Under the pieces are notes generated by a model, which saw only the letters and a program-made list of their open reading frames with translations, did no database searches and had not been told where the DNA came from. Below, in pieces: positions 2,746-59,122 of a DNA stretch of 64,000 bases; the stretch's first letter is position 1; each line of letters begins with the position of its first letter. The DNA is from Chiloscyllium plagiosum (lineage: Eukaryota). The stretch lies in the NCBI RefSeq assembly GCF_004010195.1, contig NC_057752.1:7216063-7280062 (forward strand), written 5' to 3'. A program made the translations under genes and the position numbers.

Positions 2746-4406
2746 CTATTGAATATATGTACTCAGAGTACAAGATCTGTGTTTGTTTTGATCGGAGATT
2801 CACTCAATCTGGCATTTTTAGAAAAAATATGATAAAAGATGTTCACTGTGGTTCGTCCTATTTTATGTCTTCATGGATTGGAGGATGTTGTGAAGAAATG
2901 GCCCATGAGTGCTTGCTCCAATCACTTGCAGTATTGATGTAGCCATTTTTGCACAGATTATATTGTGTTGCTGGTAGATTTATCAGGAGATTTGCATTTG
3001 GGTATTCACCAGAGTGACTGACTATGCATTAGGTTATGGTGATAGACATGATATACAGTAGGCTTGAATGAGTCTCAAAAGGCATTGATTAGAAAATGCA
3101 AGAACTAACAACAGCGATGCTTACGCACATATATTTGAACAGCCATTATAATTTCAAAATGATAGAAGCACATCAAACACCACTGGGATAGAGATTTGGG
3201 GCATAATCCGTCTGAATACTTCAAATGTGGACTCTCCCAACAACTTTCCATATGATATGATAAGCTGATGAATTTAAAGTTAGACTTGTAGATTCCTGTG
3301 AACAAGTCACCTTTCCTCCTGAAGAGTGCAAAATTAAATGTATGGCATCATAAAAAACAACATTGCGGAAGGGTGGGGTGACATGATTCGTTTTGCAGGG
3401 ATAGTAATTTCTCAGTTTGAGGTAAGGAGTAGAATTGGACAACTGTATAGGGTTATAAATATTGAAAGGTTATAGAAGGTAGTTGCTGGAAGTGCTCCAC
3501 AAGACAATTACACATACAGATTTTGACTTAATTGCACTTGTTGAAATTTGTTTACACTTCTATTAAAGATCATTATTTGTTATGGGTGCGGTCAGGCAAC
3601 AGGATATGATTAAAGACACACAGTAGGGATGCAAGGGTTTGGTGACAAAATCAAGTTCAGTTTACAGTCATGTTGCCTGAAATATATCAATTGCACAGTG
3701 ATTACACTTTCCCTGAACGGCTTGATCCTGCTCAGTAGTGACTTATCCTGCCTTGACCACCTCAATCTGCATTTAGGTAATTCTTAGACATATTTTCCAA
3801 ATGATTCAGTGGAGTCATAAATATACGTAAAACAGACATCAACAAATCTTTGATGCAAAGCAAATCCAAAATGCTGAAACCTCCACCAAGATAATTATTT
3901 AAGAACAACATTTGGTATTGCCATCAGCAAGTATAATTGATATATTAGTCATAATTCAGAATAGGAACAATTCAGCAATCTTAGCCAAATAACTGTCAGG
4001 AACATAGAAGCCCAAATTATGTCCTAACAGAGCAATAAGCCTTACTGAATGCTTGAGACCTGCTCAATCATTTAAACATACTTCCTGAAGTGTACTCCTC
4101 TTCGCCTCCTCAAACATTCTACAATTATTACAGGAGAGTGCAATGACAATATAGCAGACAATGTGTTCAACATGGAACATGTTTCTGACAGATAAGCCAC
4201 AAACAAATCCAACTGCTTCCTAATTATGTCAAAAGGAGAATGAAGCATCTTAAAAAGGAGACAATTATTTAAGGTGGATTATTGTCTACTCATTTAGTTT
4301 CATAATACATGTGAATTGTGATATCCTTTTCTTTCTTCATCAATTTGTTAATTTGTAGCCTAACAATAGATTATGAAATGATATTTATTTTTGGTGAATG
4401 ACCTAC

Positions 4407-5235: not shown

Positions 5236-6681
5236 TAAAAGGGATTAACAGTGTTAACATATATTACTAGTATGGACACAGGATGCTTTTTCAAGAAAGG
5301 AACTGGCCAGATTGCCTGAAGAGTTGTGATACATTTTTGGTGGCTTGTATGAGGTGGATTCAACAAACATAAATAAAGCCCCAAATGGTGACTGAAAAAC
5401 AATTGCACATTACAGTTGACTCTATTTTGGTTTTGAGGAACCTAGCCTTCAGGCTGTGCTACAGTACTATATAATTGAGCCATTCTACAATTTAAATAGG
5501 TCATCGATTCTCAGGGGCCACAGGGCATGATGTTACATTGATCACCAGATGAATGTAATTGTGTATTAGCTGACATAACAGGATATAGATGGAAACAAGG
5601 ATGTCTAAAGTTTGATCTCAGTGGCTACCATGACGTACAGTGGGCTGGTTTAGGGAAAATTCCAGCTGGTACAGCTGATGATTGATTCTACAGACTCTCT
5701 ACAACAAAAGGACATATGAGAGATGATTCTGTTGATTCTACATACAAGAGCAACAGTACATAAATCTTCACTTTGGACAGTCTTTATAGATGTTTTGTCT
5801 TATGCATTCGTGAGGATCAGTAAATGATTGGCCACTTGACCAGCGGTAGTCACATACAGAACCAACTACCTGGCTACATATCTTCAATGCAGTAGGGGTA
5901 GTCTCTGCTGTGGAGCAAGCCATCTCCCAGAAAACCCATTGGTCTACGTGAAACTACATTATATTTAATCCGACATCATTAACAGATTAACTCCGTAAGT
6001 GCTGTAGCGTTTCTACAATACTGAAGATAAATGAAACCGTACTGTTTAAACAATGAAGCACAAATATTATTGTTCTTCATTTATTTGCTGAAGAATTAAC
6101 TATACATTGACTAAACAGGCAGATTTATGCTATTACAGGCTTGTCAGCAGTTTACTGCACAGGACAGACAGGAAAAGGCATCCACGTTTGCGCTTACACC
6201 TACCTATTAGTTTTCAACTATCTACACAGGAACACCAAGATCTAGACACAAGAACAGGACATGACACACAGATCTTACCACTGTGTTTGCAAAGCATCAC
6301 TGTGTCACCTCGTTAACATTTTGTGAACAAGGTATCCAAAAGAAAACAAACTTAAAAAGCAAATGTGATTTTCATTAAAATGTTCCATTAGAAAATTTAT
6401 GTGGGACGTTAGGCCTAATTCCACATTTTAGATTAAACAAATTTGCTACATTTTGACATGTTGCTCAATAGATGCACAAAAGCAACACTCAAACAATTGT
6501 GCAACTGCAGAAGTACAGCATAGGAATTTTGTTACTTTTTTTTGCTGCTGTAACCCAACAGGAGCTCTCGGACAGACCACCTTCTTCTGAGGCAGTCACC
6601 AGAGGCCAAGAGTGTCCTGCTTCTATTCCAATTCAATGTGTCCGGAAATGGCTGGCATCTCCAATACACAATTGCACATTT

Positions 6682-7410
6682 AAAAAAAAATTCATTTGTG
6701 GGATGTGGGTATTGCTGGCTAGTTAACATTTATTGCCCATCCCTAGTTGCCCTCGAGAAGGTGGTGATGAGCTGCCGCCTTGAACCGCTGCATTCACCTT
6801 CTGTGGATTGACTCTCAGTGCCATTAGGGAGAGAATTCCAGGACTTTGGCCCAGTGACAGTGAAGGAACAGCTGATATATTTCCAAGTAAGGATGCAGAG
6901 AGGCTTGGAGGGCAACTTACAGGGAGTAGTGCTTCCATGTATCTGCTGCCCTTGTCCTTCTAGATGGAAGTGGTCATGGGATGGAAAGCGCTGTTGGAGG
7001 ATCTTTGATGAATTTCTGCAGTGCATCTTGTAGATGGTACTGAGCGTTGGTGGTGGAGGGAATGGATACTTGTGGATGTGGTGCTTGGATGGTGTCAAGT
7101 TTGAGTGTTCAAGGCAAGTGGGGAATATTCCCACACTCCTGCCTTGTGACTTGTAAATGGGGGACAGGCTTTGAGGAGTCAGGTGGTGAAATATGCGCTG
7201 CAATATTCCTAGCCTCTGACCTGCTCTTGTAGCTACTGTGCTTATGTGGAGAGTCCAATTACATTTCTAGTTAATGGCAAAACCCAGGATATTGATGGGG
7301 GGAATTCAGTGATATTAGCACTATTGAATGTCAAGGGGCGGTAGTTAGATAGTCTCTTACTGGTGATGGTCATTGCCTGGCATTTGTGTGGCGGGCATGT
7401 TACTGCCATA
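6682..7410 (-). mobile_element. 3' part of the tRNA-headed CR1-group LINE family
   Basis: Collinear with 33800-34535 and 54926-55700. Confidence 0.8.
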
Positions 7411-12524: not shown

Positions 12525-12679
12525 CACATGCAGAGATCTGGAAGTGTATCTGAAATTCAACAGAAATACAAACTGAACAATAAAATACCTGCTTTTAAAC
12601 TGATATGACTTGTGTGGCTGGTTTTAACGTACACCAATTTAACTGAAGACCGTTAACTCATCAAGTCTCCCCCAATTGT

Positions 12680-12960
12680 ACCTTCCAGCCAGTGATCTAT
12701 ACCACGAAAGACAAGAACAGCAGATACACAGGGCACCACCACCTGCAAGTTTCACTCTGAGCCACACACCATCCTGACTTACAACTATAATACTATTCCT
12801 TCACTGTTGCTGGGTCAAAATCCTGGAATTCCCTTCTTGGTAACACTGTGGGATACCTAAATCCTCAAGTATTGCAATGGCTCAAGGTGACAACTCATCA
12901 CCACCCTCTTCGGGCCAATTACACATGGACAATAAATGCTGGCCTAGCCAGTGACATCCT
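12680..12960 (+). mobile_element. 3' end of the tRNA-headed LINE family
   Basis: caccaccacctgcaagtt...aaatcctggaattccct...aataaatgctggcctagccagtgac. Confidence 0.75.
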
Positions 12961-13811
12961 TGAAGAAGTATATAAAACAAACACCCAATTAAGCCATAGA
13001 CTGGCCACAAAGCATTTCCCAACTGCGCATTTACAGTACCATCAATAAGAATCTGAAAAAACAAGGGGTGTGGACAATCTAAAACCAGTGTATTGTGGAT
13101 CTGGATTCATAGCACAAAATAATTCACTAAGTTAAATTCTCAAAAGCCAGAAGGACAACTGTCAAAGGAAAGTTCACACTGGTGCAAGTATGAATTAATG
13201 CACCTTCTTCTATCAGAAAAGAACCCTACCTGGAAACTCCCATAGCAATAATGTGACAAAACAGCAATGTCCCATTATTCAACACTGGCACCCTTCATCA
13301 TTATGCCAACAAAACAATTCACTAAGGAAAATATGAAAATAAAAAAAGAGCACAATGTGGCAATGCAATTTTGTGAAATACCATTCTACCTGCACGTGAT
13401 ACGTTCCTATCTGCAGTTACGTTCATTGCAAGGAGTTGCAAATAGTGGTCTAAAACAAAAGCTTAAAAAATTGTTCTTGGTAAAAAAGGATTTTAAAAAA
13501 TCAGATGGCACGGCATACTAGGGGTACGCTTGCTTCTTTCATAGTTAAAAGCACATGCAATTGCGACTGTTAAAACTTAAAATTTTGCACCAATGTTACT
13601 TGGATCACTGCAATTTGCATGCAAATGGTGAAGCAGTTTGCCTTTACTTGGGAAATATGCCTAGCTTGCTGGTATCATAGTACAACATCTCCAAGCCTTT
13701 AGTGCCCTGCAAAACTAGGCCAATTTCACAAAGCACGATACACAGTTATACCCCCTACCAAATGGAGAAAAATATGGATGAAGAGTGAGGGATCAGGAAA
13801 TTATACTTTAA

Positions 13812-14370
13812 ACTGGAGCAGGTGCAGTAAGATTTAGAACGATGATACCACAACTGCGAGGATTTTCCCCTCATGAAAACATGAAGGGAGAATGCTGATG
13901 GGTGACCGAAGAAGAGTTGTTTTTTGAAGAAAATGAAAAGTTTTGTTAAAGTGGATACAGAGAGTGTGTTTCCTTGTGGGGAAGAGGAAGTCTAGGGGCC
14001 ATCAATATAAATCACCAAGAAATCTAATAGGGAACTCAGAAGAAACCTCTTCACTTGGGAAGTGGGAACGAGGGGAGGCAGTCGCCTAGTGGTATTATCG
14101 CTGGACTGTTAATCCAGAGACCCAGGTAATGTTCTGGGGACCTGGGGTTCAAATCCTGGCCTAGCCAGAGACGTTCACATCCCATGAATGAATTAAAAAA
14201 ACCTCAATACCACAGGGAGCAGCTGAGGCAAAATATTACAGAGAAACTTAAGGGAAGGTTAGTTAAGCACTAAGCAAGAAAGGGAACAGAGGGCTATGAT
14301 GATTGAACTAAACGAGAAAAGATAGGAGAAAACTCAAATGGAACATAAACACCAACATGGACTGGTTGGG
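13812..14370 (+). mobile_element. Old CR1 3' fragment containing a short SINE
   Basis: Decayed ctggagcaggtgcag..gatttagaacgatgatacca and tail catggactggttggg. Confidence 0.55.
14072..14200 (+). mobile_element. About 130-bp tRNA-head plus tail SINE, same ends as the tRNA-headed LINE
   Basis: A-box-like tcgcctagtgg and B-box ggttcaaatcc, joined directly to tail tggcctagccagagacgttcacatcccatgaatgaat. Confidence 0.75.
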
Positions 14371-18469: not shown

Positions 18470-20876
18470 AGGGGGGATCCAAGATGGCAGTGACTTAGCA
18501 AGTCTGAGTCTATAGTGCTCCTCCCAAGACTTGGGCAAAGTGAGCCACCCGCCTCCACCACACTCACCAAATCATTTAAAATAGTTTTTACTCAATGTAA
18601 TTAGTTGCTCAGCACTAAATTTAAACAGTCTACTCTCCTGTAAAAATGACTAGGGGGAAGGGAGCCCGCAGTTCTCAGCAGGCAGGAGCCCCTCCCCCAA
18701 CCTCCCCAGCTGCAGCAGAGACGTCCGCAGCCGCCCCGGGGGACTTACCTACGGTGGCGAGCCTCACGGAAATAATCTCTAAACGCGATGCGAAGATCGA
18801 TGCCTTTATTGAAGAGCCCCGAAGCCGATGTAATTCACTCTCAGCCGCGCTACAAAAGCACGGCCGAGACATCGAGGAAATCGAACGCCAAGTCGGAGGG
18901 ACGGAGCTAAAGGCCGCGACGTCCAAGACCATTGCAAATTCGGCCGTGGATCGGGTCCGGACTCTCGAACAGCAAGTCTGGACCTTAGAGAATCACATTG
19001 ACGACCTCGAAAATCAAGGTCGTCGAAAAAATATTCGTTTGCTGGGCCTTCCCGAACGGGAAGGTGGTGGCCAGCTTACAGCGTTTCTCGTACAGTGGCT
19101 TCCACAGCTGTTAAATCTGGAGGCTGGATCAGGCCAGGTAAGGGTGGAATGGGCCTACAAGGAGAGGCAGATGCTCTTGGAAGCTTCCAGAAATCTGGGG
19201 AAAGATCCCCAAGCCATGATTTATAAAGGATCCAAGATTATGTTATTTCAGGACTTTTCCCCAGCTTTGGTCCGAAAGAGGAAGGCGTTTGACGAAGGGA
19301 AGAAGCGTTTAAGGGACTTAAACATTCAGTACTCCTTGCGCTACCTAGCTACGCCATGCTTCAGCATGAAGGGTCCGTGTATATCTTTGGATCACCGGAG
19401 AAGGTCAAGGAACTTTTGGACTCTCTTCGATAAATTGTAAGAGTTAATGGATGTTGTTCTGCCCTCCCCCCACCCCATTTTACCCCCCTTTTTTTTCTTT
19501 CATTACCTTACTGTTAAATATTATCTCCGGGGGGTGGGAAGAGGGGTTTATTTATTTATTCTTCACTTAGCGACTTTCTTCCCCCATATATATATAGGCC
19601 AGGGGGTCTAGTTAATGTAGATGGGGGGCAAGGTTGTTTTCCCCTGTTATTTTGTATTACAATATTTAATTATTATTTGCTGAGACTGTAATTTTATAGT
19701 CATATATGTTCATACATGATATTAACATTACCAAATATATCCAGGTGTTGGTGTGGGTGCTGGGGGCGGGCAGGATACTCATTGTTAATTCTAGCTCGGT
19801 AGTATACTTGAATTTTCTTTCTCCTATTGTGGGGTGCCTGGGTTAAGGGTGGGGCACTGGTTGGGAGAGGTTATGATGGGGTTTTGGAAAGGAAGTGATG
19901 CCTCCTGGGAATAAGGGGGAAGATCTCCGTTTAAATAAGTTTTATATTTTTTTATTTAGAAATAGTTTTTTATTATATTGATCCGAGTGTATTAAAGAGC
20001 CTTTATTTTGTGAATTTTATATGGTCTATGCTCGGGATGTTTTGGATAGGGTTTCTTCTCCCGAGGGGTCTCGGACTTGCCCGGTGATTATGGGTAATCG
20101 GTTGATTAAATGGTGCACCTGGAATGTCACGGGGAGTAATTCACCAATCAAAAGGAAGAAAATATTATCAAACCTCAAGAAAGAAAAGGTTGATATAGCT
20201 CTCCTATAGGAGACACATTTATTGGATAAAGAACACCTGAAATTACGACAGGGAAGAGATTATTTTCCATTCTCTCTCTCTGTGCAAGGAGAAATATTTT
20301 GGTAAACTGGGTGGCTGAGGGCCCTCATGGACTTTCGAGATGGCACAGAATAATTATGGAATATACTCCCCCTGACCTCCTTACAAATACGGTGCGCCAA
20401 AAAAAAAAGAATTACTCCATAAAATATGGCAGCCCTTCTTGAATTACACAAATACAGATATCTCGGTCATCCTAATAAGGGCCTTTATTTAATTGAGAGG
20501 GTGAACCTGGCTGGTGCAGGGCCCCTTAGGAGAGGAATTCCGCATGAATACAGGCTTTGTTATGATCTGATGTTAACACATTCCGAGCATGTATATCACT
20601 ACTCAATTTCTGTGTTATCAGTTGTTTTTTTTTCTCTTGAATAATGGAAGAGATTTAATCATACCCTCTGGTTAGTTGTAGGTTAGATGAGTAGTTAGTT
20701 GAGTTTTTTTTTCCCTCTCGGTATTTCCTTTTTTTCTGTTTGATAGATTTTGGTTATTATTTATTTAAGATTTAATTGCGTATCAATGTTTATACTTGGG
20801 GTTTTTTTTTAAGTTTTCTTTTGTAAACGTGTAAAAACATATTAAATTTTCAATAAAAATATCTTTATTAAAAAAT
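18470..20876 (+). mobile_element. L1 element with most of ORF2 deleted
   Basis: 5' ggggggatccAAGATGGC; ORF1; ORF2 start KWCTWNV.G then a jump to the C-terminus ...WQPFLNY...RAFI*; aataaa and A-rich end. Confidence 0.9.
18646..19440 (+). pseudogene. L1 ORF1 (coiled coil-RRM-CTD), damaged
   Basis: LENQGRRKNIRLLGLPE and FQDFS motifs; lacks the HRV..RPRP.LVRF segment present in the other L1; frameshift near the end. Confidence 0.85.
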
Positions 20877-21126: not shown

Positions 21127-21818
21127 ACCACCTTTTCAGGAAGAGAGTTCCAAAGACATTGAACCCTCAAAAGAAGAAAAAGACTCATCTCCATAATTCT
21201 GGCTGAAGATGGCTACAAACGTTTTGTCTTTTGCACACGCAGGCTGGCCTCCTCCATCAGAGAGACGGAATGTCAGAGGACTGCAGAGCTTCGATCTAAT
21301 CTGCTGGCTGAGAGACTCATGGATACTCAGTTTGGAGTTGCTCAATTGGTTTTGAATCTACCCATGTAGCAATGTAACAGCAAAATGGAGGAAGTCGTCA
21401 GTATGAAGATGGGACTTCACTTCTGCATAGATTTTGCATAAATCACTGGTCACTCTTATCAATATTGTCAGCAATCCTGAAATGTTCGTGGCATCACTGG
21501 CCCATACAATCCTTTTGTGGGATGAAATGACTTTTCTTCCGCCAATAGATAAAAGGTCTTTGTCAACATTTTACACAAATGCACCATCTAAAATATTTTA
21601 ATCATTGCTCACAAATTTCCAAATTAGGAAGCCTAAAGATGTTTGGAAATTCATTGGGTGGTGGGTCGAAAACTGAATGTGGCAATAAATGAATGGACTC
21701 TGATTCAAATTTAGCAACAAATGGCTTGAGGTACAGCATTCTCATGATCAAACTGAATGGCAGAGTAAGTTTGGGAGCTGAATGACCCTCTTTGCCCTTA
21801 ATGTGGCATGACCCTTAC

Positions 21819-25735: not shown

Positions 25736-28700
25736 AAAAAAAATATATTTTTATTAAGAAAAAATAGATTTTTAAATATTACAACAAATACAAAACAATG
25801 CAATTCAAAACAGTACAAAAATAGGACAAAACTAAACCCAAATAATAAAAAATTCCCCAGCCCACCCTCCTATATGAATGTATAAACATATATAGAGAAG
25901 TATAAAATTAAAACAAAAACCTAAATTAGCTATTCAACTAACTAAATAAATACCTAACAACAAACAAATAAATAGTAATAACTCAGCCCAGCCAAACAAA
26001 ACACTCATACATTCACAGTTCCTCCTCCCTGGATATTGGACTCATGAAACACAATCATTACGGCTATATAAAAGCCCTTGTTAGTGTGGCAGATGAATCT
26101 GTGTCTAGGTATTTCAAAAAGGGTTGCCATGTCTTGTAAAAATTCTCAGTTTTGTGGTGTACCATATTTGAGAGAAAATCCAGGGGGATATGCTCCATAA
26201 CAATCTTCCGCCAACCCGACAGGCCTGGGGGTTTTCTGATATCCAACCTAGCAAGATATTCTTCCTTGCACAGACGTAAGAATATTGAAAAGTGTTTTCT
26301 TATGCGCGTCTGCAGGAAATACAATGGGTAGGCCCAAAAGGAGAGATAGAGTCCTTCTCCACCCCTACACATAAAATCCTCTCCATTGCACCCACCACAG
26401 CGCTCCAATATGTTTGAAGCCTGTCACAAGACTAAAGACAATGGGTAAGGGTGCCCGTGCAGACCTTGCTCTTGGGACATGCTGAAGATACCCCTGGTTT
26501 AAATTTTGACAAACGGTCTGGGGCTAAGTGGACCCTGTGGAGAATCTTCAGCTGTAAAGCATGGGTCCTATTGCAAATTGACATCTTCCTTGCATTCTCC
26601 CAAATATCCTCCCATGCCTCTGAAGAAACTTCAACACCCAGCTCTCCCTCCCACATCCTGCAGAGTCAATCAGACTCATCTGAGGTGGCACCACCCAATT
26701 AGTGATATGAAGTACTGACAGAGAGTGTGCTCTTAGTCCTTAGTACCTCTCTTTCTATGTCAGATTTGTAGGGATCAGTCAAAAGTGTGGTCTTTGTTTG
26801 AATAAAATCCCTCACTTGAAAAAAACGAAAGAGGTCTCTATTAGATAACGTGCACTTCCGTACTAACTGACCGAAGGACATCATTACATCTCCCTCAAAT
26901 AAATCACCCATGCAAGATATACCCCTAGCTGCCCAACGTTTAAATCCTGAATCTATCAGACCCGGTTGAAAACCCGACATACCCACTGAAGGTGTGAACA
27001 AAGATGTTTTGCCAATATTACCTTCCCTCTGCCGAATTGCCCTCCATGCTTTAACAGTATTGATGACTATTGGGTTATGGCAATATTCCCTAACTGTCCT
27101 CACCTTGTCCAAAAACAGCAAACTGGTAAGGGGGCACCTTGCCTGGGAGGCTACGATATCTAGTCATATTGAAAGAGGATCCCCACAAACCCAATCACTC
27201 ACGTAGGTCAAAAGCGAACTTAATTAGTCATTTTTAAATGTCCGGAAGGTCAAATCCCCTCAATCTGTGAGTCAACTGCAGTTTGGCTAATTTAATGAGG
27301 GGCCGTTTATGGTGCCAGATAAAGGAGCTGAACCAACCGTTCAGTCCCCTGAGTGTTTGTTTATTGAAAATCAGGGGGAGCATCCGTATAGGGTACAGCA
27401 AACGAGGGAGAATATTCATCTTAATAAGCGCTATCCGACCCAACCATGAGACTGGAAGTGCCTCCCATCTTTGGAGATCTTGTTTAATTTTTTCAAACAA
27501 TTGAGTAAAATTGGCTTTGAACAGCCAATCCAGATCTGGAGTAATGAATATGCCCAAATACACAAAACCCCCCTGTGACCACCTAAATGGGAATCTATAG
27601 TCACCCTCAAGAGCCAACTCTTTCGTAAGACCATCCATAGGCGTAGCCTCTGATTTAGCAAAATTAATCTTATACCCTGAAAAAGCGCCAAACGCGTGAA
27701 TGCATTGTATCAGGCAAGGCACTGAGACTGCTGGATTTGTCAAGAAAATTAGAACATTGTCTGCATATAGCGAGATCTTATGTAATTTTGACCCCATTTC
27801 TGGAGCTGATATATTGAGATTCCCACGAATGGCCTCTGTCAACGGTTCAATCACCAACGCAGAAAGTAATGGTGAAAGGGGACAGCCCTGCCGGCTGCCC
27901 CTAGAAATATTAAAATTGCTTGATCGTACCCTATTGGTGATGACCACCACGAGAGGTACTCTGTAGAGAACCTTTACCCATCTTATGAAAACTTTGCCCA
28001 GACCAAACCGGTCGAGAATACAGAAAAGGTACGGCCACTCAACTCGGTCAAATGCCTTCTCTGCATCTAAAGAAATCACTAATCCCTGTATTGACTGCTG
28101 TTGGCATGCTTGAATTACGTTAAGCAACCTCCTAGCGTTATTGGAGGATCTGTGACCTGTCTGATCCTCTTTAATAATAGAGGGTAACACAGTCTCCAAC
28201 CTTAAGGCAAGAGCCTTAGAGAGGATCTTAAAGTCCCCATTTAAGAGCGAGATGGGCCTGTATGAAGCACAGTCTTCCGGATCCTTCCCTTTTTTAAGGA
28301 TAAGTGAAACATTGGCCTCTCTCAGAGATGGTGGGAGACAATCATTAAACATATTCAGCATCGGGCCTGACAGTATACTTATAAATTCCTTATAGAATTC
28401 ACTGGGAAGTCAGTCAGGACCAGGCGCCTTTCCACTCTGAAGCTGCCTCACAGCTTCCTGCACTTCTTGCTCTGATAAGGGGGCATTGAGAAAGGACTGT
28501 TGTTCGCGAGTCACACCTGGGAGCTTCAGATCTCTAAAAAAGGATTCCATTTTGGCCTGCCCCTCCTCACAATTCTCAGACTGACACAACTTAGAGTAGG
28601 ATCTCTGGAACGCCACATTCATGTTCCGTGTGCCCCATTCACTTTCCATGTGCCCTGTTCTCTTTCTGTGTGCATCTTTTTAGAATCACAGGTTAGGTTC

Positions 28701-31481
28701 CAAGACCTTTCCCTAATCGCTGTAATGGTTTGTGGGGCACTTCTCTTTCTGGCAAGGTATGCTAAGTATTTGCCTGGCTTGTCACCATGCTTGTATAACC
28801 TTTGCTTTGCAAAAGCCAGCTCCTTCTTTGCCACCTGTATGAGCACGGAATTTAGTGCAGACTGCAGTGCTGTAATCCTCTGTAGGGTCTGTCAAAATAG
28901 GCCTTCTCGGCTGCCTTCGACCATACTTCAAGAAGATGTTGCTGCTCACCCTTCTGCCGCTTCCTACTGATGGAATATGAAATAACTAACCCCCTGGCAT
29001 AAGCTTTGGCAGTTTCCCAGAGAACTGATGAGCTATCAACTGAGCCTATGTTGATGTCTAGAAATGCCCGAAATTCCCTCGAGAAATACTCCACAAACTT
29101 ACTGTCCATGAGAATAAAGGGGTCCATTTGTCAGTACCTTGAATCCACTGTAACATCCTTAATCTTAACCATGAGGTACACTGGAGCATGATCAGAGATG
29201 GCAATATTACCAATTGTACAGGATGCCACCAGATCCAGGGTTACCGCAGGGGTCAGAAAAAAAATCAATCCTCGTGTGACATCTATGCGGATTGGAGAAA
29301 AACATGAAATCCCTACCTGTAGGATGGAGACACCTCCAGACATCCACCAACCCTAATTCCCCACACAAACCCAATAACTATTCAGTTTGTGCAAAGGGGA
29401 TATGGAGGGACCTTTAGGCAACCTGTCTACTGTGGGGTCCATGAGGCAGTTAAAATCTCCCCCTATAATGATGTGCTGAGACTTGAGACTTATCAGTTTA
29501 GAAAAAGCATCTACCAAGAATTTAAGAGGATGAGCTGGGGGACAATAAACATTTAAAATGCCATATTCTTCCCCATTTATCAAGGCTTTAAGAATTACAA
29601 ACCTCCCATATGTGTCTTTAACACAGTCCAACAATTTAAAAGAGAGATTTTCTCCTAATCAATATAGCCACTCCCCTACTTCTGATATTAAATGAAGAAA
29701 AATAAACTTGGTCAAAGCCATTCTGCTGTAATTTCAGATGCTCCTTGTCATCCAAATGTGTCTCCTGTAACAAAGCAATATCCACCTTCTCCTTTCTAAG
29801 ACTCAAGAGTACCTTCTTCCTCTTAATTGGCGAGTGACTTCCCTTGATATTCCAGGTACACCATTTAATCAAATCATTAGCCATAATCTTCTGCAATTAC
29901 ATTTAAATTCCAGAGAGGAGGAACCCGAACCACAAATTGCTGAGCCTTAGTGTCGCATGTTCCACCAAATATAAGAACTACATAAACTAAAACCACTACA
30001 TTTAACAAACATACAAAATTATTAAAAATAAAAAACAACAAAACCAGAAAACAAACCAACATCTACAGCGCCAATAGCGCTGAGTCGGGGAACTCACCCC
30101 CTGCCCGGAGGGGGCAACTACCCGTCCCGGACTGCCCATAAATAGGCATCTAACCATCTCAACCACCTTCACTTCTCCCAGCTAGAGCCGCATCGCAAGC
30201 ACAAGCTAAAAAGAATAAACACCCCATAGAATATCAGTATGAATAAAAAAAAATTCTTTTATATAAAAAAAGGGGAATAAATACCCCACCCATCCTTTGG
30301 TATGTCCTAACTTAGAAATTTAAAATGTACATCTTAACCACCGCCAGACATAGTTTGAACCAAATTATTATCAATAGAGGGTAAAAAAAGGGGGAAAAAC
30401 AAAGCTCCAATCGGATTTCCTCCATTTCTTTTACAGAATGATAAATGCATACTCAAGCAACAATATTTATACATACTACAATTGTTTAAATTAGGTTAGT
30501 TTGTCCACAAAGTCTCTTGCCTTGTCCGATGTGTCAAAGAGATGCATGGATCCATCTAAGGTGATCCGAAGCACTGCTGGATATCTCAGGGAGTACTGAA
30601 TCCCAAGCTCCTTCAATCTTCTCTTGACACCATCATATGATTTTTGTTTCTGGATCACCGCCGCTGAAAAGTCCTGAAAAAACATGACCTTAGACCCCTC
30701 GTAAATTAGAGCCTTTGGATCCTTCCCCTGGAGTCTGGAAGCCTCCATGACTCTCTCCTTATCCTGGTTATGATGGAACCGCACCAGGAAAGGACGAGGG
30801 CGTTGACCCAGACCTGACCGCCGCGCTGTGACCCGGTGAGCCCTCTCTATCTTCAATCCTCTCATGCCAGCCTCCAAGTTAAGGAATTTCGAAAGTCAAT
30901 CTTCAACAAATCCCGCAGGCCGCTCACCTTCTTTACCCTCAGACAGACCGATGATCCGAATGTTTTTTCTCCTGCCCCAGTTTTCAAGATCATCCACTTG
31001 GTCACGCAAATTACGAACCTGCGTCTTCAGGGCTTGGATCTCTTCCTTGAATGAACTGGCATCAGTTTCCACCACTGTGACCCTGTGCTCCACCTCATCC
31101 GTCCTCTTCTCCAAGTCTCCGAGTTGCTGCTCATGCTTCTGCAGCATGAGAGAGACTGGAGCCAACTTCTCTTCAATCTGTTTCCCCAGCATCTTGCGAG
31201 ATTTTGAGAGCTGGTTCACCAGGTCCTGGAGAGTAATTGGTCCCGAGGCTGCTGGAAGCTGAGCTGCAGACCCGGCCTCGGATGCTCCTCCTCCTTTTTT
31301 CGGCATTTCGGGACAGCTGAAAATACAGCTAAGTCAATTTTTAAATGTTTCTTGGGGCTCCACAATCTTTCCAACGCCCCAAGAAATCCTGATGACCTGG
31401 GTTGGGCAGGTTAAAGGACCATCTTGCTCCTGCTGCGATGCGAAGCTCTGCAGTGTGATCTTCTCAGATCGCCGCCATCTT
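25736..31481 (-). mobile_element. Near full-length L1 (ORF1 31306-30491, ORF2 about 29884-26064), disrupted
   Basis: 5' AAGATGGCGG (YY1-type); ORF1 LENWGRRKNIRIIGL; APE motifs TWNIKG, LQETH, GGDFN, SDH; RT motifs SLDAEKAFD, RQGCPLSP, YADN; Cys-rich C-terminus; several frameshifts and stops. Confidence 0.95.
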
Positions 31482-31546: not shown

Positions 31547-34535
31547 GGGAGGCAATGGTCTAGAGGTATTGTAGCAAGGCAACTAATCCAGAACTTATGT
31601 TCTGGGAACCAGGTTTCAAAATCCATCATGGCAAGTGGTGGAATTTGAATTCAATTTAAAAATAAATCTGGACTAAGAGTCTAATCATTGTCAATTGTCA
31701 GAAAAGCCAATCTGGTTCACTAATGTCTTTCAGGGAAAGAAATCTGCCATCCTCACCTGGTCTTGCCTGCATGTGACTCCAGACCCATAGCAATATGATT
31801 TGACTCTCAACTGCTCCCTGAAATGGCCTAACAGACCACTCCGTTGTAGCAATCGCGACAAAGTCTACACAAAGAAAGGAAACTGGGTGGGCCACTTGGC
31901 ATCGGCCCAGGCACCGAAAAGACAATGGCAGAAACAGCCCTGTTCATCCTTCAAAATCCTTCTGACTAAAATCTTGGGGCTATTTTCAAAATTGGAAGAG
32001 CCGTCTCAGACTAGTCAAGCAACAACCTGACAGAAGTCATACTCATCTTACAGGTAATGTCCCAAACACCACAATCACCATCTATGTCCTGATACATCCT
32101 GTCCCATCGACAGACCCAGCAGAGGTGGTGGCACTGGGTATACTGTCGGGAGGGAGTTATCCTGGGAGTCCTTGACATTGACTCCAGATACCATGAAGTC
32201 TCATGGCTTCAGAATTAAACATGGGTAAGGAAACCTCCTGCTGATTTTGATATACCATCCTCCCTCAGCCAATGAATCAGTACACCACCATAACGAACGA
32301 GACTTGGAGGAAGCACTGAAGGTGGACAAGGTACTCTGGGTGGGAGATTTCAATGTCCATCATAAAGAGTGACTCAACAACTGCTGTTCGGGTCCTAAAG
32401 GAAACAGCTGCGAGTCCGGGTCTGCATCAGGTGGTGAGGGTAAAACATACTTGACCACATCCTTACCAATCTGCTGGATGCAGATGCACCTGTCCATGAC
32501 GTTATCAGTAAGAGTGACCACTGCACAGTCTTGATGGAGACAAAGTCCTATATTCATGTTGAGAATACCTTCCATTGTGTTGTGTGGCATTATCACCATG
32601 TTAAATGGGACAGACTTCAAACAGATCTAGCAACTCGAGGCTGGGTATCCAGGAGATGCTGTGGGTCATCAAGAGCTGCACATTGTACTCCAGCACAATC
32701 TGCAATTTCATGGCCTGGCATATTCCCCACACAACCATTACCATCAAGCCAGGGGGATTAATGCTGTTTCAGCGGAAAGTTTAAGAGGGCACACCAGGAG
32801 CAGCACCAGACATACCTGAAAATGAGGTGTCAACCTGGTGAAACTACCAAACAGGACTACTTGATGTCACACAGCATAGGCATCATGTGATAGATACAGT
32901 TAAGCAATCTGACAGCCAATGGCTCAGATCTAAGCTTTGCAGTCCTGCCACATGCAGTTGTGAATGGTGAAGGACAATTAATCAACTCACTGGAGGCGCC
33001 GGGTTCACAAATATCCCTCCCCTCAATGATGGAAGAAACCAATACATTAGTGCAAAAGACAAGACTGAAGCATTCGCAACAATCTGCAGCCAGAAGTGCT
33101 AAGTGGATGATTCATCTCATCCTCGTCCAGTAGTCCCCAGCATTACAGATACCAGTCTTCAGCCAACTTGATTCACACTATGTGATATATAAAGGCTATG
33201 GGGCCTGACAACATTCTGAAGACTTGTGCTCCAGAGTCTGCCATTCCCCCAGCCAAGTTGTTCCAGTACAGATACAACACTGGTATCTACCCAGCAATGT
33301 GGAAAATTGCCCAGGTATGTCCTGTAGGTAAAAAGCAGGACAAATCTAACCCAGCCAATTTCCACCCCATCATCGGTAAAGTGACGCAAGATGTTGTCAA
33401 CAGTGTTAAGAAGCAACACCTGCTCAGCAATAACCTGCTTGGTGACACCCAGTTTGGGTTCTGACAGGGCCACTTATCTCCTGACCTCATTCCAGCCTTG
33501 GTTCAAACATGGACAAAAGAACTAAATTCCAGAGGAGAAGTGAGAGTGACAGCTTTTGACATCAAGGCCACATTCAAACTAGCCCACTCATCTCCAGTTG
33601 CTTCATCAATGACCTTCCCTCCATCAGAAGGTTAGAAATGGAGATGTTCGATGATTTTGCTTTGGTGCTGAACATTGAACAAAGAACAGTACAGCACAAG
33701 AACAGGCCCTTCAGCCCACCAAGAATGAGCTGACCCTTCAGATACTGAAGCAGTGCATGCTCAAATGCAGCAAGACCTGGACAACATCCAGACTTGGGCT
33801 GGCAAGTAACATTCACACCACACAAATGCCAGGCCATGACCATATGACCATCTCCAATAAGATGGAATTGCACTACTGCCCCATGACATTCAATGGTGTT
33901 ATCATCACTGAATCCCCACTATCAATATCTTGGGGGTTACCACTGACCAGAAACTCAACTGGACTCACCACACAAACAGTAGTTACAAGAGCAGGTCAGA
34001 ACTCGGAATACTGTGGCAAGTAACCCACCTCCTGACTCTCCAATGTCTGTCCACCATCTGCAAGGCATAAATCAGGAGTGTGATGGAATACTTGCCTGGG
34101 TGAGTGTACCTCCAACACTCAAGAAGCTTAACACCATCCAGGACAAGGGAGACAGTTGAATTAGCACCATGTCCACAAACATCCATTCCCTCTATCACCA
34201 GTGCTCAATTGCAGCAGTAGGCACTGCAGAAATTCACCAAAGCTCCTTTCAAATCCACGGCCACTTCCATCAAGGAAGGACAAGGGCAGCGACAGCAGAT
34301 ACATGGGAACACCACCACCTGCATGCACCCTTTGAGCCACTCATTATCCAGACTTGGAAATATATTCCTGTTCCTTCACGGTTGCTGGGTAAAAATTCTG
34401 GAATTCCCTCCCTAATGGCATTGAACTGCTGCAATAGGTCGACCAAAAAGGCAGATCACCACCACCACCTTCTCAAGGGCAACTAGGGGCAGACAATAAA
34501 TGCCCATGTCCCACGAGTGAATATAAGAAAAAAAA
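31547..34535 (+). mobile_element. About 3-kb CR1-group LINE with a tRNA-like head and ORF2 only (decayed)
   Basis: SINE-type head 31547-31820; APE motifs (ggagatttcaatgtc GDFNV, agtgaccac SDH); RT (YPAMWKIAQVCPV.KK, QFGF, DIKA.F, FINDLP); tail aataaatgcccatgtcccacgagtgaat. Confidence 0.85.
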
Positions 34536-44134: not shown

Positions 44135-44416
44135 GTGCTTCTGGACTGACGGATGGATGAATGGACTGATGTGTACCATTTAAGAATGGTATGCATCAGC
44201 GTCATCCAAAAAATACTGAAAATAAAAGGAGGGCAAATTTATTTTTCTCTCATCCATTGAGCAAAAAAGAAGAAAAAAAATTGTGCTAAGTAAACCAGGT
44301 AGACCTACATTTAGCCCCAACGTGAGTAATGAGATTAGCAAGGTAATGCTTGCATTCTATGCTGTACATAAAACCTTTTCAGATAACTGTGCAGAACATC
44401 CTCTCAGCTGGAATGT

Positions 44417-45098
44417 TTTTCATTCATTCACGAAATGAGGGCATCACTGGCTAGGCCAGCGTTTATTGCCCAGAAGGCAGTTAAGAATAAACCACATTGT
44501 TGGAGGTCTGGAATCACATGCAGGCCAGACCAGAGAAGGACAGCGGTCTCCTTCCCTAAAGGACATTGAGTCATAGAGATGTACAGCATGGAAGCACACC
44601 CTTCAGTCCAATTCATCCATGTCAACCAGATATCCTAAATTAATCTAGTCCCATTTACCAGCATTTGGCCCATATCCCTCTAAACCCTTCCTGTTCACAT
44701 ACACATCCAGATGAGTCTTAAAATCTTGTACTTGCACCAGCCTCCACTTCTACTGGCAGCTCATTCCATACACACACCACCCTCAGCATGAAAAGGTTGT
44801 CCCTTAAGGTCTTTTTTATATCTTTCCCCTCTCACCCTAAATCTATGCCCTCTAGTTCTGGACTACCCCACCCCAGGGAAATGACCTTGTCTATTTACCC
44901 TATCCGTGCCACTCATGATATAAACCTCTAATCATGGATAGGTTTTCCAACAACAAAAAGTGGATGCATAGTCAACATTGGACTCTTAATCCCAGATTTT
45001 TCCTGAATTTTAATTCCATGATCTGCCATGATGGGATTTGAACCCAGGTTCCCAGAACATTATCTGGGTCTCTGGATTAACAGTTCATTGCCTCCCCC
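44417..45098 (-). mobile_element. SINE made of the head and tail of the tRNA-headed LINE, interrupted by a CR1 piece
   Basis: Head ggggaggcaatg...gggttcaaatccc, collinear with 31547-31815, then tail gggcaataaacgctggcctagccagtgatgccc. Confidence 0.8.
44568..44930 (-). mobile_element. CR1/HER1 3' end nested in the SINE
   Basis: gagtcatagagatgtacagcatggaa is the reverse of the HER1-type tail. Confidence 0.85.
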
Positions 45099-54925: not shown

Positions 54926-55995
54926 CTTTGGTTTTATTTATTCGTGGGACACGGACATGGACATGCCTGAACTGCTGTGCTCTTCCAGCACCACTAATCC
55001 ATCACTGGCTGGCCAGTATTTATTGCCCGTACCTAACTGCCCTTGAGAACGTGGTGGTGAGCTGCCTTTTTGAACCACTGCAGTCCATATGCCGTAGATT
55101 GACCCACAAAGCCCTCAGGGAGGCTATTCCAAGATTGTGACTCAGCAATAGTAAAGAAACTGTGATATATTTCCAAGTCAGGATCGTGTGCAACTTGGAG
55201 GGGAACTTACAGGGGATCGTGTTCACATGTAACTGCTGCCCTTGTCCTTCTAGATGCAAGTGACCATGGGTTAGGAGGGTGCGCCTAAGGATCTTTGGTG
55301 AATTTCTGCAGCGCATTTTGTAGATAGTACGCACTGCTTGTGGTGCAAGGAGTGCATGCTTGTGGATATGGTGCCAATCAAGTGGGTTACTTTGTCCTGG
55401 ATGGTGTGAAGCTTCTTGAGTGCTACTGGGCACCCATCTAGGCAAATGTGGAGTATTCCATGTCACTCCTGACTTGTGCCTTGTAGATGGACAGGCTTTA
55501 GGGAGTCAGGAGTGTTACTTGACACAGAATTCCTAGCCTCTGCCCTGCTCTTGTAACCACTATGTTTATATGGTGAGTCAAGTTCTGTTTCTGGCCAATG
55601 GTAACCCCAGGATGTCGATAGTGGGGGAAACTTTTCAAGGGGCAGTGGTCAAATCATCTGACTGGAGATAGTCACTGACAGGCATTTGAACAGTGCAAAT
55701 GTTATTTGCCACATCTCAGCGCAAAACTTGATATTGTCCAGATCTTGATGTACTTGAACATGGACTGCTTCAGTATCTGAGGAGTTGCGAATAGTGCTTA
55801 ACCTTTGTGCAATCATTGGCAAAAATCCCTACTTCTGATCTTATGATGGAGGGGAGGTCATTGCAGATGTAGCTGAAGATGGTTGGGCCTAGGACATTAG
55901 CCTGAGGAACTCCTGCAGTGATGTTCTGGAGGGGAGATGACTGACCTCCAACAGCCACAACCATCTTATGTGCCAAGTATGACTTCAACCAGAAA
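54926..55995 (-). mobile_element. 3' part of the tRNA-headed LINE family
   Basis: GVPQANVLGPTIFS..CNDLPSIIRSEVGIFAND; family tail; small fold-back-element fragment inserted at about 54964-55000. Confidence 0.85.
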
Positions 55996-57276: not shown

Positions 57277-57785
57277 CTTGTTGTAACTGTAACAAACTCT
57301 ACATTGAACAAACAGGCTAAAAACTAGCCACCAGGATACATGAACATCAACTAGCCACAAAAACCCACTCTCACTGGTATCCTTACATACAGATGAGGAA
57401 GGATACCACTTCGACTGGGACAACACACCCATCATAGGACAAGCCAAACAGAGACACGCACGAGAATTCCTAGAAGCATGGCATTTCAACCAGAACTCTA
57501 TCAACAAACATATCGACAAATGGGTGACCCCATTTATCACCCCATGAGAAAAGAATAGAAAATGACATCACCACATGAAATGATGTCACCACAGGAAATG
57601 ACATCACCAACCCAAGGAAACAAACAAATAGAAAGTGGGCCATACCACCAGTGCTTCATCCAGAGGCTCACTGATGATGTTAACTAGTATGGTGACGAAA
57701 CATCTGAAAACGAACCTTCCAGCTCAGCGAGCAAACCTACATCAAGAACCTCAACATGAGCTACAAGTCTTCTCAAATTTCGCTA
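57277..57785 (+). mobile_element. Penelope-like element 3' fragment (GIY-YIG C-terminus and pLTR)
   Basis: C.NCNKLYI.QTG.KLATRIHEHQLA...REFLEAWH; hammerhead motif in the 3' part. Confidence 0.9.
57668..57707 (+). ncRNA. Minimal hammerhead motif in the Penelope pLTR
   Basis: tca CTGATGA t gttaac tagtat ggtgac GAAA CATC tga. Confidence 0.6.
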
Positions 57786-59122
57786 TCAACAATTATCTCC
57801 ACTTCTGATGTTATGGTGGAGGGAAGGTCATAATGAGGCAGCTGAAGGAGGTTGGGCCTAGGACACCAACCTGAGGAACTCCTGCAGAGATATCTTGGAA
57901 TGTAGATGACTAACCTCCAACAAACACAACCCATCTTCTCCTTTGTGCGAGGTATGACTCCAACCACGGAGGTTTTCCAACTGGCTCACATTGACTCCAG
58001 TTTTGCCAGGGTTCTTTGATACACTTAGTCAAAAGGTTGCCATGCTGTCAAGGACAGTTGCTTGCTTTGACTTTTGACCATGTTTGAACCAAGGCTGCAA
58101 TGAGGTTATGAGTTGAGGGGCCCTGGCGTAATCCAAACTGAGGTGCTGGGTTCCCTCATCATGATTAGTGGAGCATCCTCCTCTAGTGAGTTCTTCAACT
58201 GGCCACCATCATTCACAGTTGAATATGGTAGGACTGCAGAGCTTAAATCTGATTGGTGTGGGATCACTTCGCCCCCATCTTTTGCATGCTGCTTCTGCTA
58301 TTTGGCACAGAAGTTTTGTGGTTTCACTAGGTTAACACCTCATTTTTACATATGCCTGATGCTGCTCTTGGCATGCCCTCCTGCATTCTCCATTGAACCA
58401 GAGCTGATCTCCTGGCATAAATGGTAGATATGCCACGTCTTGAAGTTACAGATAGTGGTTGAATGCAATTCAGCCGCTGATGGCTGACAGCACCTCATGG
58501 ATACCCAATTTTGAGTTGCTAAATCTATTCAAGTCTTTCGCATTTAGCAGAGTGACTGTGCCACACAACAGAGAAGGCATGCACATTACGAAAATGTGAG
58601 TTTTTCTCTACAAGGACTGCATTTCTACAGATTCTGTCATAGGTGCTAGTGGGACAGGACACACCTGGAAATGGTGACATCTGGGACAACTCCCGTAAGG
58701 TACGATTCTACAAGTATGACCATCTTTGGCTGTTTCTTGACTTGTCTGGGAAACAGCTCTCTCCATTTTGGCACTAGTCCCCAGATGTTCGCAAGGAGAA
58801 CTTTGCTGTCGTCATTTCTGGTGTCTAGGTTTATGCCAATTGGTCCATCTTCTTTCATTGTTTTGTTGAAATTTTACAGCAGTTTACTACAACTGAGTGG
58901 CTTTCTAGGCCATTTCAGAAGTCAGACAAGAGTCAATCGCAAGGCTGAGAGTCTAAAATCACGTTTTGGCAGACTTCCTTCCCCAAAAGAAGTTGGTAAA
59001 CCACAATTGTGTGTAGCTTTTTAAATTCCAGATATCTTTTTGATTGAATTCAAATTTCATTATCTGTCATGGTGGGATTTGTACTCATGTCCCCAGAACA
59101 TTAGTTGGAGGTTGTGGATTAC
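57786..59122 (-). mobile_element. 5' part of a second tRNA-headed LINE copy, internally deleted
   Basis: Head (ctaatgttctggggacatgagtacaaatcccacc) leading into the APE start KVLLANIWGLVPK...VILVESYL; RT piece at 57786-58110. Confidence 0.78.

Follow-up and report, generated by a model that had tools for sequence, protein, structure and literature searches.

A tRNA-headed Zenon LINE of sharks and rays as a candidate protein-coding retrotransposon of RNA polymerase III

Introduction

RNA polymerase III (Pol III) normally makes short non-coding RNAs only. In a 64,000-nucleotide stretch of contig NC_057752.1 of the shark Chiloscyllium plagiosum (hereafter the window), an initial annotation had described a head with A- and B-box-like motifs that is followed by an endonuclease, a reverse transcriptase (RT) and a tail, and this layout was borne out by the sequence and by domain matches (Table 1). 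Reviews assign LINEs to RNA polymerase II (Pol II) and SINEs to Pol III, and hold that Pol III limits the length of what it transcribes (PMC10886601). The locus thus raises two questions, namely what this element is and which polymerase would make its RNA.

Results and Discussion

Identity and layout of the element

Judged by its sequence, the element is a copy of an elasmobranch Zenon LINE, an APE+RT element of ~3.3 kb. Seven elasmobranch Zenon consensuses of 2,886-3,314 letters from five species, one of them a ray, have been published (Stuart et al. 2026, PMC13343379), and these elements (RhiTyp_, CarCar_, ScyCan_, SquAca_ and HypSab_Zenon) belong to the same family. The match was made by eye on the first 400 letters of the consensuses alone; over this part about nine in ten letters of RhiTyp_Zenon-1 are the same, and 7/7 elasmobranch consensuses begin with the head and leader found here (PMC13343379 supplement). 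Two hagfish and one coelacanth Zenon consensuses show, over their first 400 letters, another 5' start that is T-rich by eye. Like the window family, the published elasmobranch elements are described as 3.2-3.3 kb long, with APE and RT, a poly(A) tail and no ORF1.

Zenon and Rex1 are reported to have 'universally lacked ORF1' (PMC13343379, section 15) and Zenon elements to end in poly(A) (PMC13343379); the family likewise has a single APE+RT ORF, no ORF1 and a poly(A) tail. The initial annotation was therefore right that ORF1 is missing, but the absence loses its surprise, because it is the normal state in Zenon as published. An RT tree of 38 rows (two of 40 were dropped, having no RT), which held no labelled Zenon references and was weakly resolved at depth, separated the family from CR1 and L1 of the same genome, and the only CR1 row of this genome with good coverage fell into a 100/99 clade that does not include the Zenon family. 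The usable flanks of the copies also showed no ORF1, whereas an esterase ORF1 marks CR1 proper. HE1/HER1 and SacSINE1 had been considered as identities and were dropped upon the Zenon match; HE1, SacSINE1 and CmiSINE are described as other shark SINEs.

The window copy is 86% identical to the column majority of its family. It begins with a G run (GGGAGG at 31547), its ORF carries numerous stops and frameshifts, and ~175 nt of the RT are deleted near 33580. The head has an additional hairpin of ~20 nt, placed after the anticodon-like arm and before the B box, and the 3' half of the leader is nearly invariant, by eye, between shark and ray consensuses. Within the ORF a basic N-terminal extension of ~44 codons precedes the endonuclease, which starts at ~31960 in the window copy (the match to PF14529 is weak, E 5e-4), and the stop at 34484-34486 lies downstream of the RT. 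Target-site duplications were not obvious by eye in seven full-length copies and the window copy.

Sixteen profile matches to the Zenon family lie within the window; more fragments were seen at 1710-2744, 6672-7409, 12655-12962, 21186-21470, 55000-55994 and 57785-59122, the last of which (minus strand) includes head and endonuclease. An L1-type LINE at ~26700-31480 on the minus strand stands head-to-head with the Zenon copy, its 5' end at most ~70 nt from the Zenon head, and contains a coiled-coil ORF1-like frame (30899-31333) and an RT frame (27237-28409). The former was considered as the ORF1 of Zenon and rejected, since it belongs to this neighbour. Another L1-type ORF1-like frame, of 271 codons, occurs at 18625-19437 on the plus strand.

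Table 1. Features of the Zenon copy and of its short partners in the window
Feature	Coordinates	Strand	Basis or remark
Zenon LINE copy, whole	31547..34535	+	dead copy
tRNA-like head; 5' end common to the family	31547..31640	+	family alignment; published Zenon consensuses begin here
A-box-like motif, decayed in the window copy	31556..31566	+	sequence; family alignment
B-box-like motif, decayed in the window copy	31612..31624	+	sequence; family alignment
Leader, common to the LINE and the 370-nt partner	31641..31822	+	alignment
Micro-ORF ATG-GCC-stop, immediately 5' of the long ORF and in frame with it	31823..31834	+	
Single APE+RT ORF, broken in the window copy; 974 codons at the level of the family	31832..34486	+	
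CR1 3'-tail fragment, later antisense insertion (approximate coordinates)	33657..33741	-	beside the ~175-nt RT deletion
Short 3' UTR and poly(A) tail (A8), common to the short partners	34487..34535	+	
370-nt partner: head, leader and tail	44409..45098	-	split by CR1 fragment 44560-44928
~125-nt mini form, a fusion of the head with the final ~50 nt of the tail	14072..14202	+	

One constant 5' end

At a single locus a one-off chimera, or a SINE that happens to lie next to a LINE truncated at its 5' end, could give the same picture, and short elements with this head are abundant. We searched the 3.56-Gb genome of the source with the head and junction (31547-32150) and scored 40 of the 8,047 candidates. 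All the other best matches (39/39) started in the head or leader and ran colinearly on into the endonuclease, with a query end of at least 500 (72-79%), and 13 of these 39 began within 10 nt of the 5' end of the window copy; in the flanks of the copies similarity drops sharply at the starting G run. No tail was found at the junction and no other 5' end was seen, and the layout is identical in 7/7 published elasmobranch consensuses as far as their first 400 letters extend. The alignments of the copies refute chance adjacency, to which we attach next to no probability.

A second sample was anchored on the RT, so that it would not select for the head. From 150 listed RT matches it drew 60 copies: 40 were taken from among the best, the window copy and a short contig being passed over, and a further 20 were chosen for their long open frames. 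Thirty-seven of the 60 are 5'-truncated inside the ORF and 23 extend 5' of the endonuclease, with three ending in the N-terminal extension, five in the leader and 15 reaching the head. Eight of these 15 are single unbroken alignments, and the other seven were chained over gaps, and chance neighbours may be among them. No alternative 5' end or ORF1 was seen in the 56 usable upstream flanks, and no pair of these was alike at both breakpoints. The head-ORF junction, the constancy of which had been left to be checked, is thus a fixed feature of the family and not a chance SINE neighbour, and the different 5' end with ORF1 that could have overturned the first reading did not appear among these flanks.

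None of the 80 copies fetched is intact over its full length; the longest gap-free natural frames, as printed for ten loci, are of 269-334 codons, and searching proteins for a shark ORF of full length returned only fragments inside gene models. For HypSab, 3 of 612 ORF2 are entered as intact (PMC13343379 supplement). The annotated shark gene models P0001, P0004, P0005, P0006 and P0008 contain pieces of Zenon RT, which are probably annotation artefacts or exonisation.

The tRNA-like head

Alignment of the family head with 14 host tRNAs gave z scores of 2.2-6.5, the best being Leu-CAA (6.5), Leu-AAG (6.2) and Thr-AGT (6.2), and 0/500 shuffles reached its score. Two tRNA-Gln genes gave z scores of 6.0 and 6.3, values which are inflated because the genes were picked by a pattern derived from the head; one of them aligns to it with a single 20-nt gap. 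These scores point to a head that derives from a tRNA and has A and B boxes, with several candidate donor tRNAs (Leu, Thr, Gln). The window copy alone is barely tRNA-like, with a best z of 2.9 among the 14 tRNAs, so that the tRNA resemblance proposed from this copy holds for the family head (z ~6) and hardly for the copy itself. ARAGORN found no tRNA in the window or in 14 head-bearing copies, and Rfam found no tRNA and no ribozyme in the window head and eight loci. The head showed no significant fold and no cloverleaf (z -1.6); other folding tests of head and leader were not significant (z -1.3, -0.9), and the tail gave -2.3.

Across the shark and ray consensuses the A and B boxes persist while the intervening spacer varies, as seen by eye in the first 400 letters. 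Boxes that are kept while their spacer changes are what is expected of an internal type 2 promoter. Head variants without the 20-nt second hairpin, and with ordinary tRNA spacing between the boxes, were seen at L235, L236, L238-L242 and L244-L246; these are 10 of the 12 loci fetched, the remaining two being the tRNA-Gln genes. Set against the features of a SINE2, the LINE has the tRNA-derived head and a sense strand without internal Pol III terminator, but with its 3.3 kb it is neither short nor non-coding, as only the 370-nt and 125-nt partners are.

A selected ORF without an ordinary start

For the ORF, bases were counted at each column of 207 aligned pieces. A single frame runs for 974 codons without a majority stop, while across the model the remaining two frames have 38 and 63 stops, and the 17 columns with a stop in more than 15% of copies all have CGA or TGG as their codon. 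Between two subfamilies, of 13 and 25 copies, the ORF shows 46 synonymous versus 25 non-synonymous changes (pN/pS 0.16). The ORF2 whose intactness had been in question is thus open at the level of the family, and the alignments indicate a 974-codon ORF that was once functional and under purifying selection.

The first in-frame ATG of this frame is codon 290, 3' of the endonuclease. Directly 5' of the frame, and in frame with it, stands ATG-GCC-TAG-CAA with G at -3 and G at +4; the micro-ORF ends in TAG CAA in the family versus TAA CAG in the window copy, and the first base of the TAG is present in 29/45 copies. A 16-nt motif around ATG-GCC-TAG-CAA occurs in 6/7 published elasmobranch consensuses, the ray included. 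Between micro-ORF and endonuclease the subfamilies have indels of 3 and 6 nt, which preserve the frame, so the basic N-terminal stretch before the endonuclease was probably translated; in the relative P0014 a Met opens a similar basic stretch. An ATG near column 416 was rejected as the start, being out of frame and varying C/T as in CpG decay. Readthrough or reinitiation at ATG-GCC-TAG-CAA are, with less confidence, candidate routes to translation of the ORF. The known type I readthrough motif is UAG-CAR-YYA (PMC3542737), of which TAG-CAA-GCC fits the first half only, and termination-reinitiation has been described for SART1 and L1 (PMC5972666).

Avoidance of T clusters on the sense strand

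The initial annotation had called for a count of TTTT runs on the sense strand. The family model of 3,292 nt has none, and it has four TTT runs as against 52 AAA, 46 CCC and 39 GGG. The null model was a synonymous permutation of the ORF in which the protein and the codon usage are preserved. Under this permutation three TTT runs were found in the ORF versus 12.0 expected (P=0.0002), with A, C and G runs as expected; the absence of TTTT was not significant (0 vs 1.8, P=0.12), and base shuffling gave 0 vs 4.4 (P=0.012). Phenylalanine is encoded by two TTT and 15 TTC codons, and of 65 codons able to form TTT by synonymous change alone, three do. Looser clusters are depleted as well, with four T in five bases once versus 10.4 expected and four in six seven times versus 33.8. 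A CR1 control from this genome, treated alike over 1,542 nt, had 24 TTT versus 24.9 expected and six TTTT. As a further control we used 10 of 14 metagenome relatives with 27-49% protein identity, four loci with short matches being left out; these 10 headless relatives, in which no A/B-box pattern was found, have TTT at 0.76-1.6 times expectation and TTTT in all, as compared with 0.16 in the Zenon family. On this comparison the sense strand avoids Pol III terminators. Avoidance of splice acceptors or of poly(A) signals found no support as the cause of the T loss, as pyrimidine tracts and AATAAA are not depleted; nor are A clusters.

Individual copies do contain TTTT, at the A run of the leader in 10/49 and at the tail in 11/40. 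The TTTT at the leader A run would reflect drift after insertion, because its lengths vary, both subfamilies are affected and the tail behaves likewise. A recurrent drift from AAT(A)n to AAT(T)n(A)m was seen in about a fifth to a quarter of copies where a long A run is preceded by T, at family column ~137 and at the tail (e.g. window 31655-31662). Tails of a T run plus A were considered as a 'T+ SINE' signal and rejected, since the same drift affects the internal A run.

These results bear on whether the element is after all an ordinary Zenon, transcribed by Pol II or by host read-through, with the head a passenger of an old template switch and the T-poverty a composition bias or the outcome of another constraint. 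Published accounts treat LINEs as transcripts of Pol II (PMC10886601, PMC5786205), and small-RNA heads without a Pol III promoter do exist, as in the U1/U2-headed Tx1 elements of crocodilians (PMC4494074). Nevertheless, the loss of T clusters is confined to one strand and holds after control for amino acids and codon usage, CR1 and the headless relatives show no such depletion, and the A and B boxes persist in sharks and ray while the spacer varies (by eye, in the first 400 letters). We therefore rate transcription as an ordinary LINE as improbable.

Short partners

Head and tail of the window LINE recur in the elements at 14072 and 45098, as had been noted at the outset. The best 30 of 42 matches to one short copy all have head and leader fused to the 3' UTR at one junction, a layout selected by the query. 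The whole ORF and the micro-ORF are absent from the 370-nt partner, and short copies have diverged about as much as long ones (0.89 vs 0.87 identity to their own majority). The 370-nt partner probably arose from the Zenon LINE by internal deletion, and we infer the direction from LINE to SINE. The ~125-nt mini form is possibly a second SINE subfamily.

A proposed life cycle

From these sequence features it appears likely that Zenon is an autonomous LINE, the retrotransposing RNA of which would be made by Pol III, with the internal A and B boxes as its promoter. We lean, with less assurance, towards the fuller proposal of an autonomous protein-coding Pol III retrotransposon, with an uncapped RNA of 3.3 kb, a terminator-purged ORF and readthrough or reinitiation at ATG-GCC-TAG-CAA, which may have existed since before the shark-ray split. 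The SINE-LINE hybrid with a Pol III-type promoter that was suggested from the window alone has gained by the fixed head-ORF junction, the functional ORF and the T avoidance, whereas the Pol III promoter itself we infer.

An ancestral Zenon would have gained the head once, before the split of sharks and rays, when its copying switched template to a tRNA or to the RNA of a tRNA-SINE. The need of Pol III to read 3.3 kb would have led to selection against TTTT and near-terminators, and the polymerase would stop at the first T run of the flank. The uncapped RNA may then be translated without a normal start, most plausibly by initiation at the strong-context ATG-GCC-TAG-CAA followed by stop readthrough or by reinitiation just 3' of it, a step that we hold less firmly. 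Pol III transcripts can reportedly be translated, a result ascribed to Gunnery and Mathews in 1995. The ORF protein would start target-primed reverse transcription (TPRT) at the A tail and would mobilise the 370-nt partner too, which on deletion of the ORF would have become a SINE at once because the Pol III head was already present.

The length of the element counts against reading by Pol III, as SINE lengths of 100-700 bp have been tied to weak Pol III processivity (PMC10886601) and the 3.3 kb of the Zenon LINE are far above this range. Of four RNA runs compared with copy L087, a raw poly(A) single-cell run yielded 2,023 reads, more of them in sense and with no pile of starts, a second yielded 0 reads, and the other two consisted of contigs. 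Of the 2,023 reads 95% continue into unlike sequence, as for copies inside host transcripts, which suits a division of labour in which a Pol III RNA is copied and the protein comes from capped Pol II read-through transcripts off host promoters. Such a division would also explain the T avoidance without translation of an uncapped RNA. On the other hand, purifying selection on the ORF is easier to understand if the protein acts on its own RNA, and ATG-GCC-TAG-CAA together with the ATG-free first 290 codons would need special translation on either RNA; we consider the division unlikely. The preferred reading remains that of one Pol III RNA that would be copied and may also be translated.

Relation to known systems and implications

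The Zenon family and its lack of ORF1 were already published; the selected ORF, the T avoidance, the ATG-less start and the ORF-less partner are findings of the present work. The words 'tRNA' and 'polymerase III' have 0 occurrences in the main text of PMC13343379, and its available sections do not describe the head, the T avoidance, the missing start codon or the short partner. A Pol III reading of Zenon was not found in the literature searched, Repbase, Dfam and subscription papers (e.g. Ogiwara 1999) set aside, nor does it appear in the accessible parts of PMC13343379, 10.1101/443036, PMC5499810, PMC4824008, PMC11481361, PMC5786205, PMC10886601 and PMC3747384.

Several systems share part of this organisation in their published descriptions. 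Lepidopteran Zenon has in Persaeus an abundant ~350-nt partner with the 5' and 3' ends of the LINE and poly(A) (Wang et al. 2019, PMC6740152), but Persaeus is described without tRNA homology or a Pol III promoter, whereas the shark LINE and its partner both have a predicted one. In the crocodilian Tx1-2_Crp, Tx1-4_AMi and Tx1-11_Crp a head derived from small RNA is common to the LINE and its partner SINEs (Kojima 2015, PMC4494074). However, U1 and U2 have no internal promoter, and SINEU contains oligo-T, for which Pol III was excluded by the author (PMC4494074), while the Zenon head has A and B boxes and its body no oligo-T. As far as these accounts go, the U1/U2-headed crocodilian Tx1 would be the nearest precedent for a small-RNA-headed LINE, and it is not of Pol III type (PMC4494074). 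Bov-tA/Bov-B and SINE2-1_ACar/Vingi-2_ACar also combine a tRNA head with 5' and 3' parts of a LINE; there the tRNA head is found on the short non-coding element only, whereas in shark Zenon it is on the coding LINE too. The TRIMp3 elements Cassandra, Helenus and Ajax are retrotransposons with a Pol III promoter from a small RNA, but they are of LTR type, short and non-autonomous (PMC10886601).

If the proposed cycle is true, this very abundant LINE of sharks would provide a case in nature of a protein-coding RNA made by Pol III and would cross the polymerase line between LINEs and SINEs. It would also offer a test bed for cap-independent translation and for Pol III processivity, and would reveal a new route of SINE birth, by deletion of the ORF from a LINE that is already driven by Pol III.
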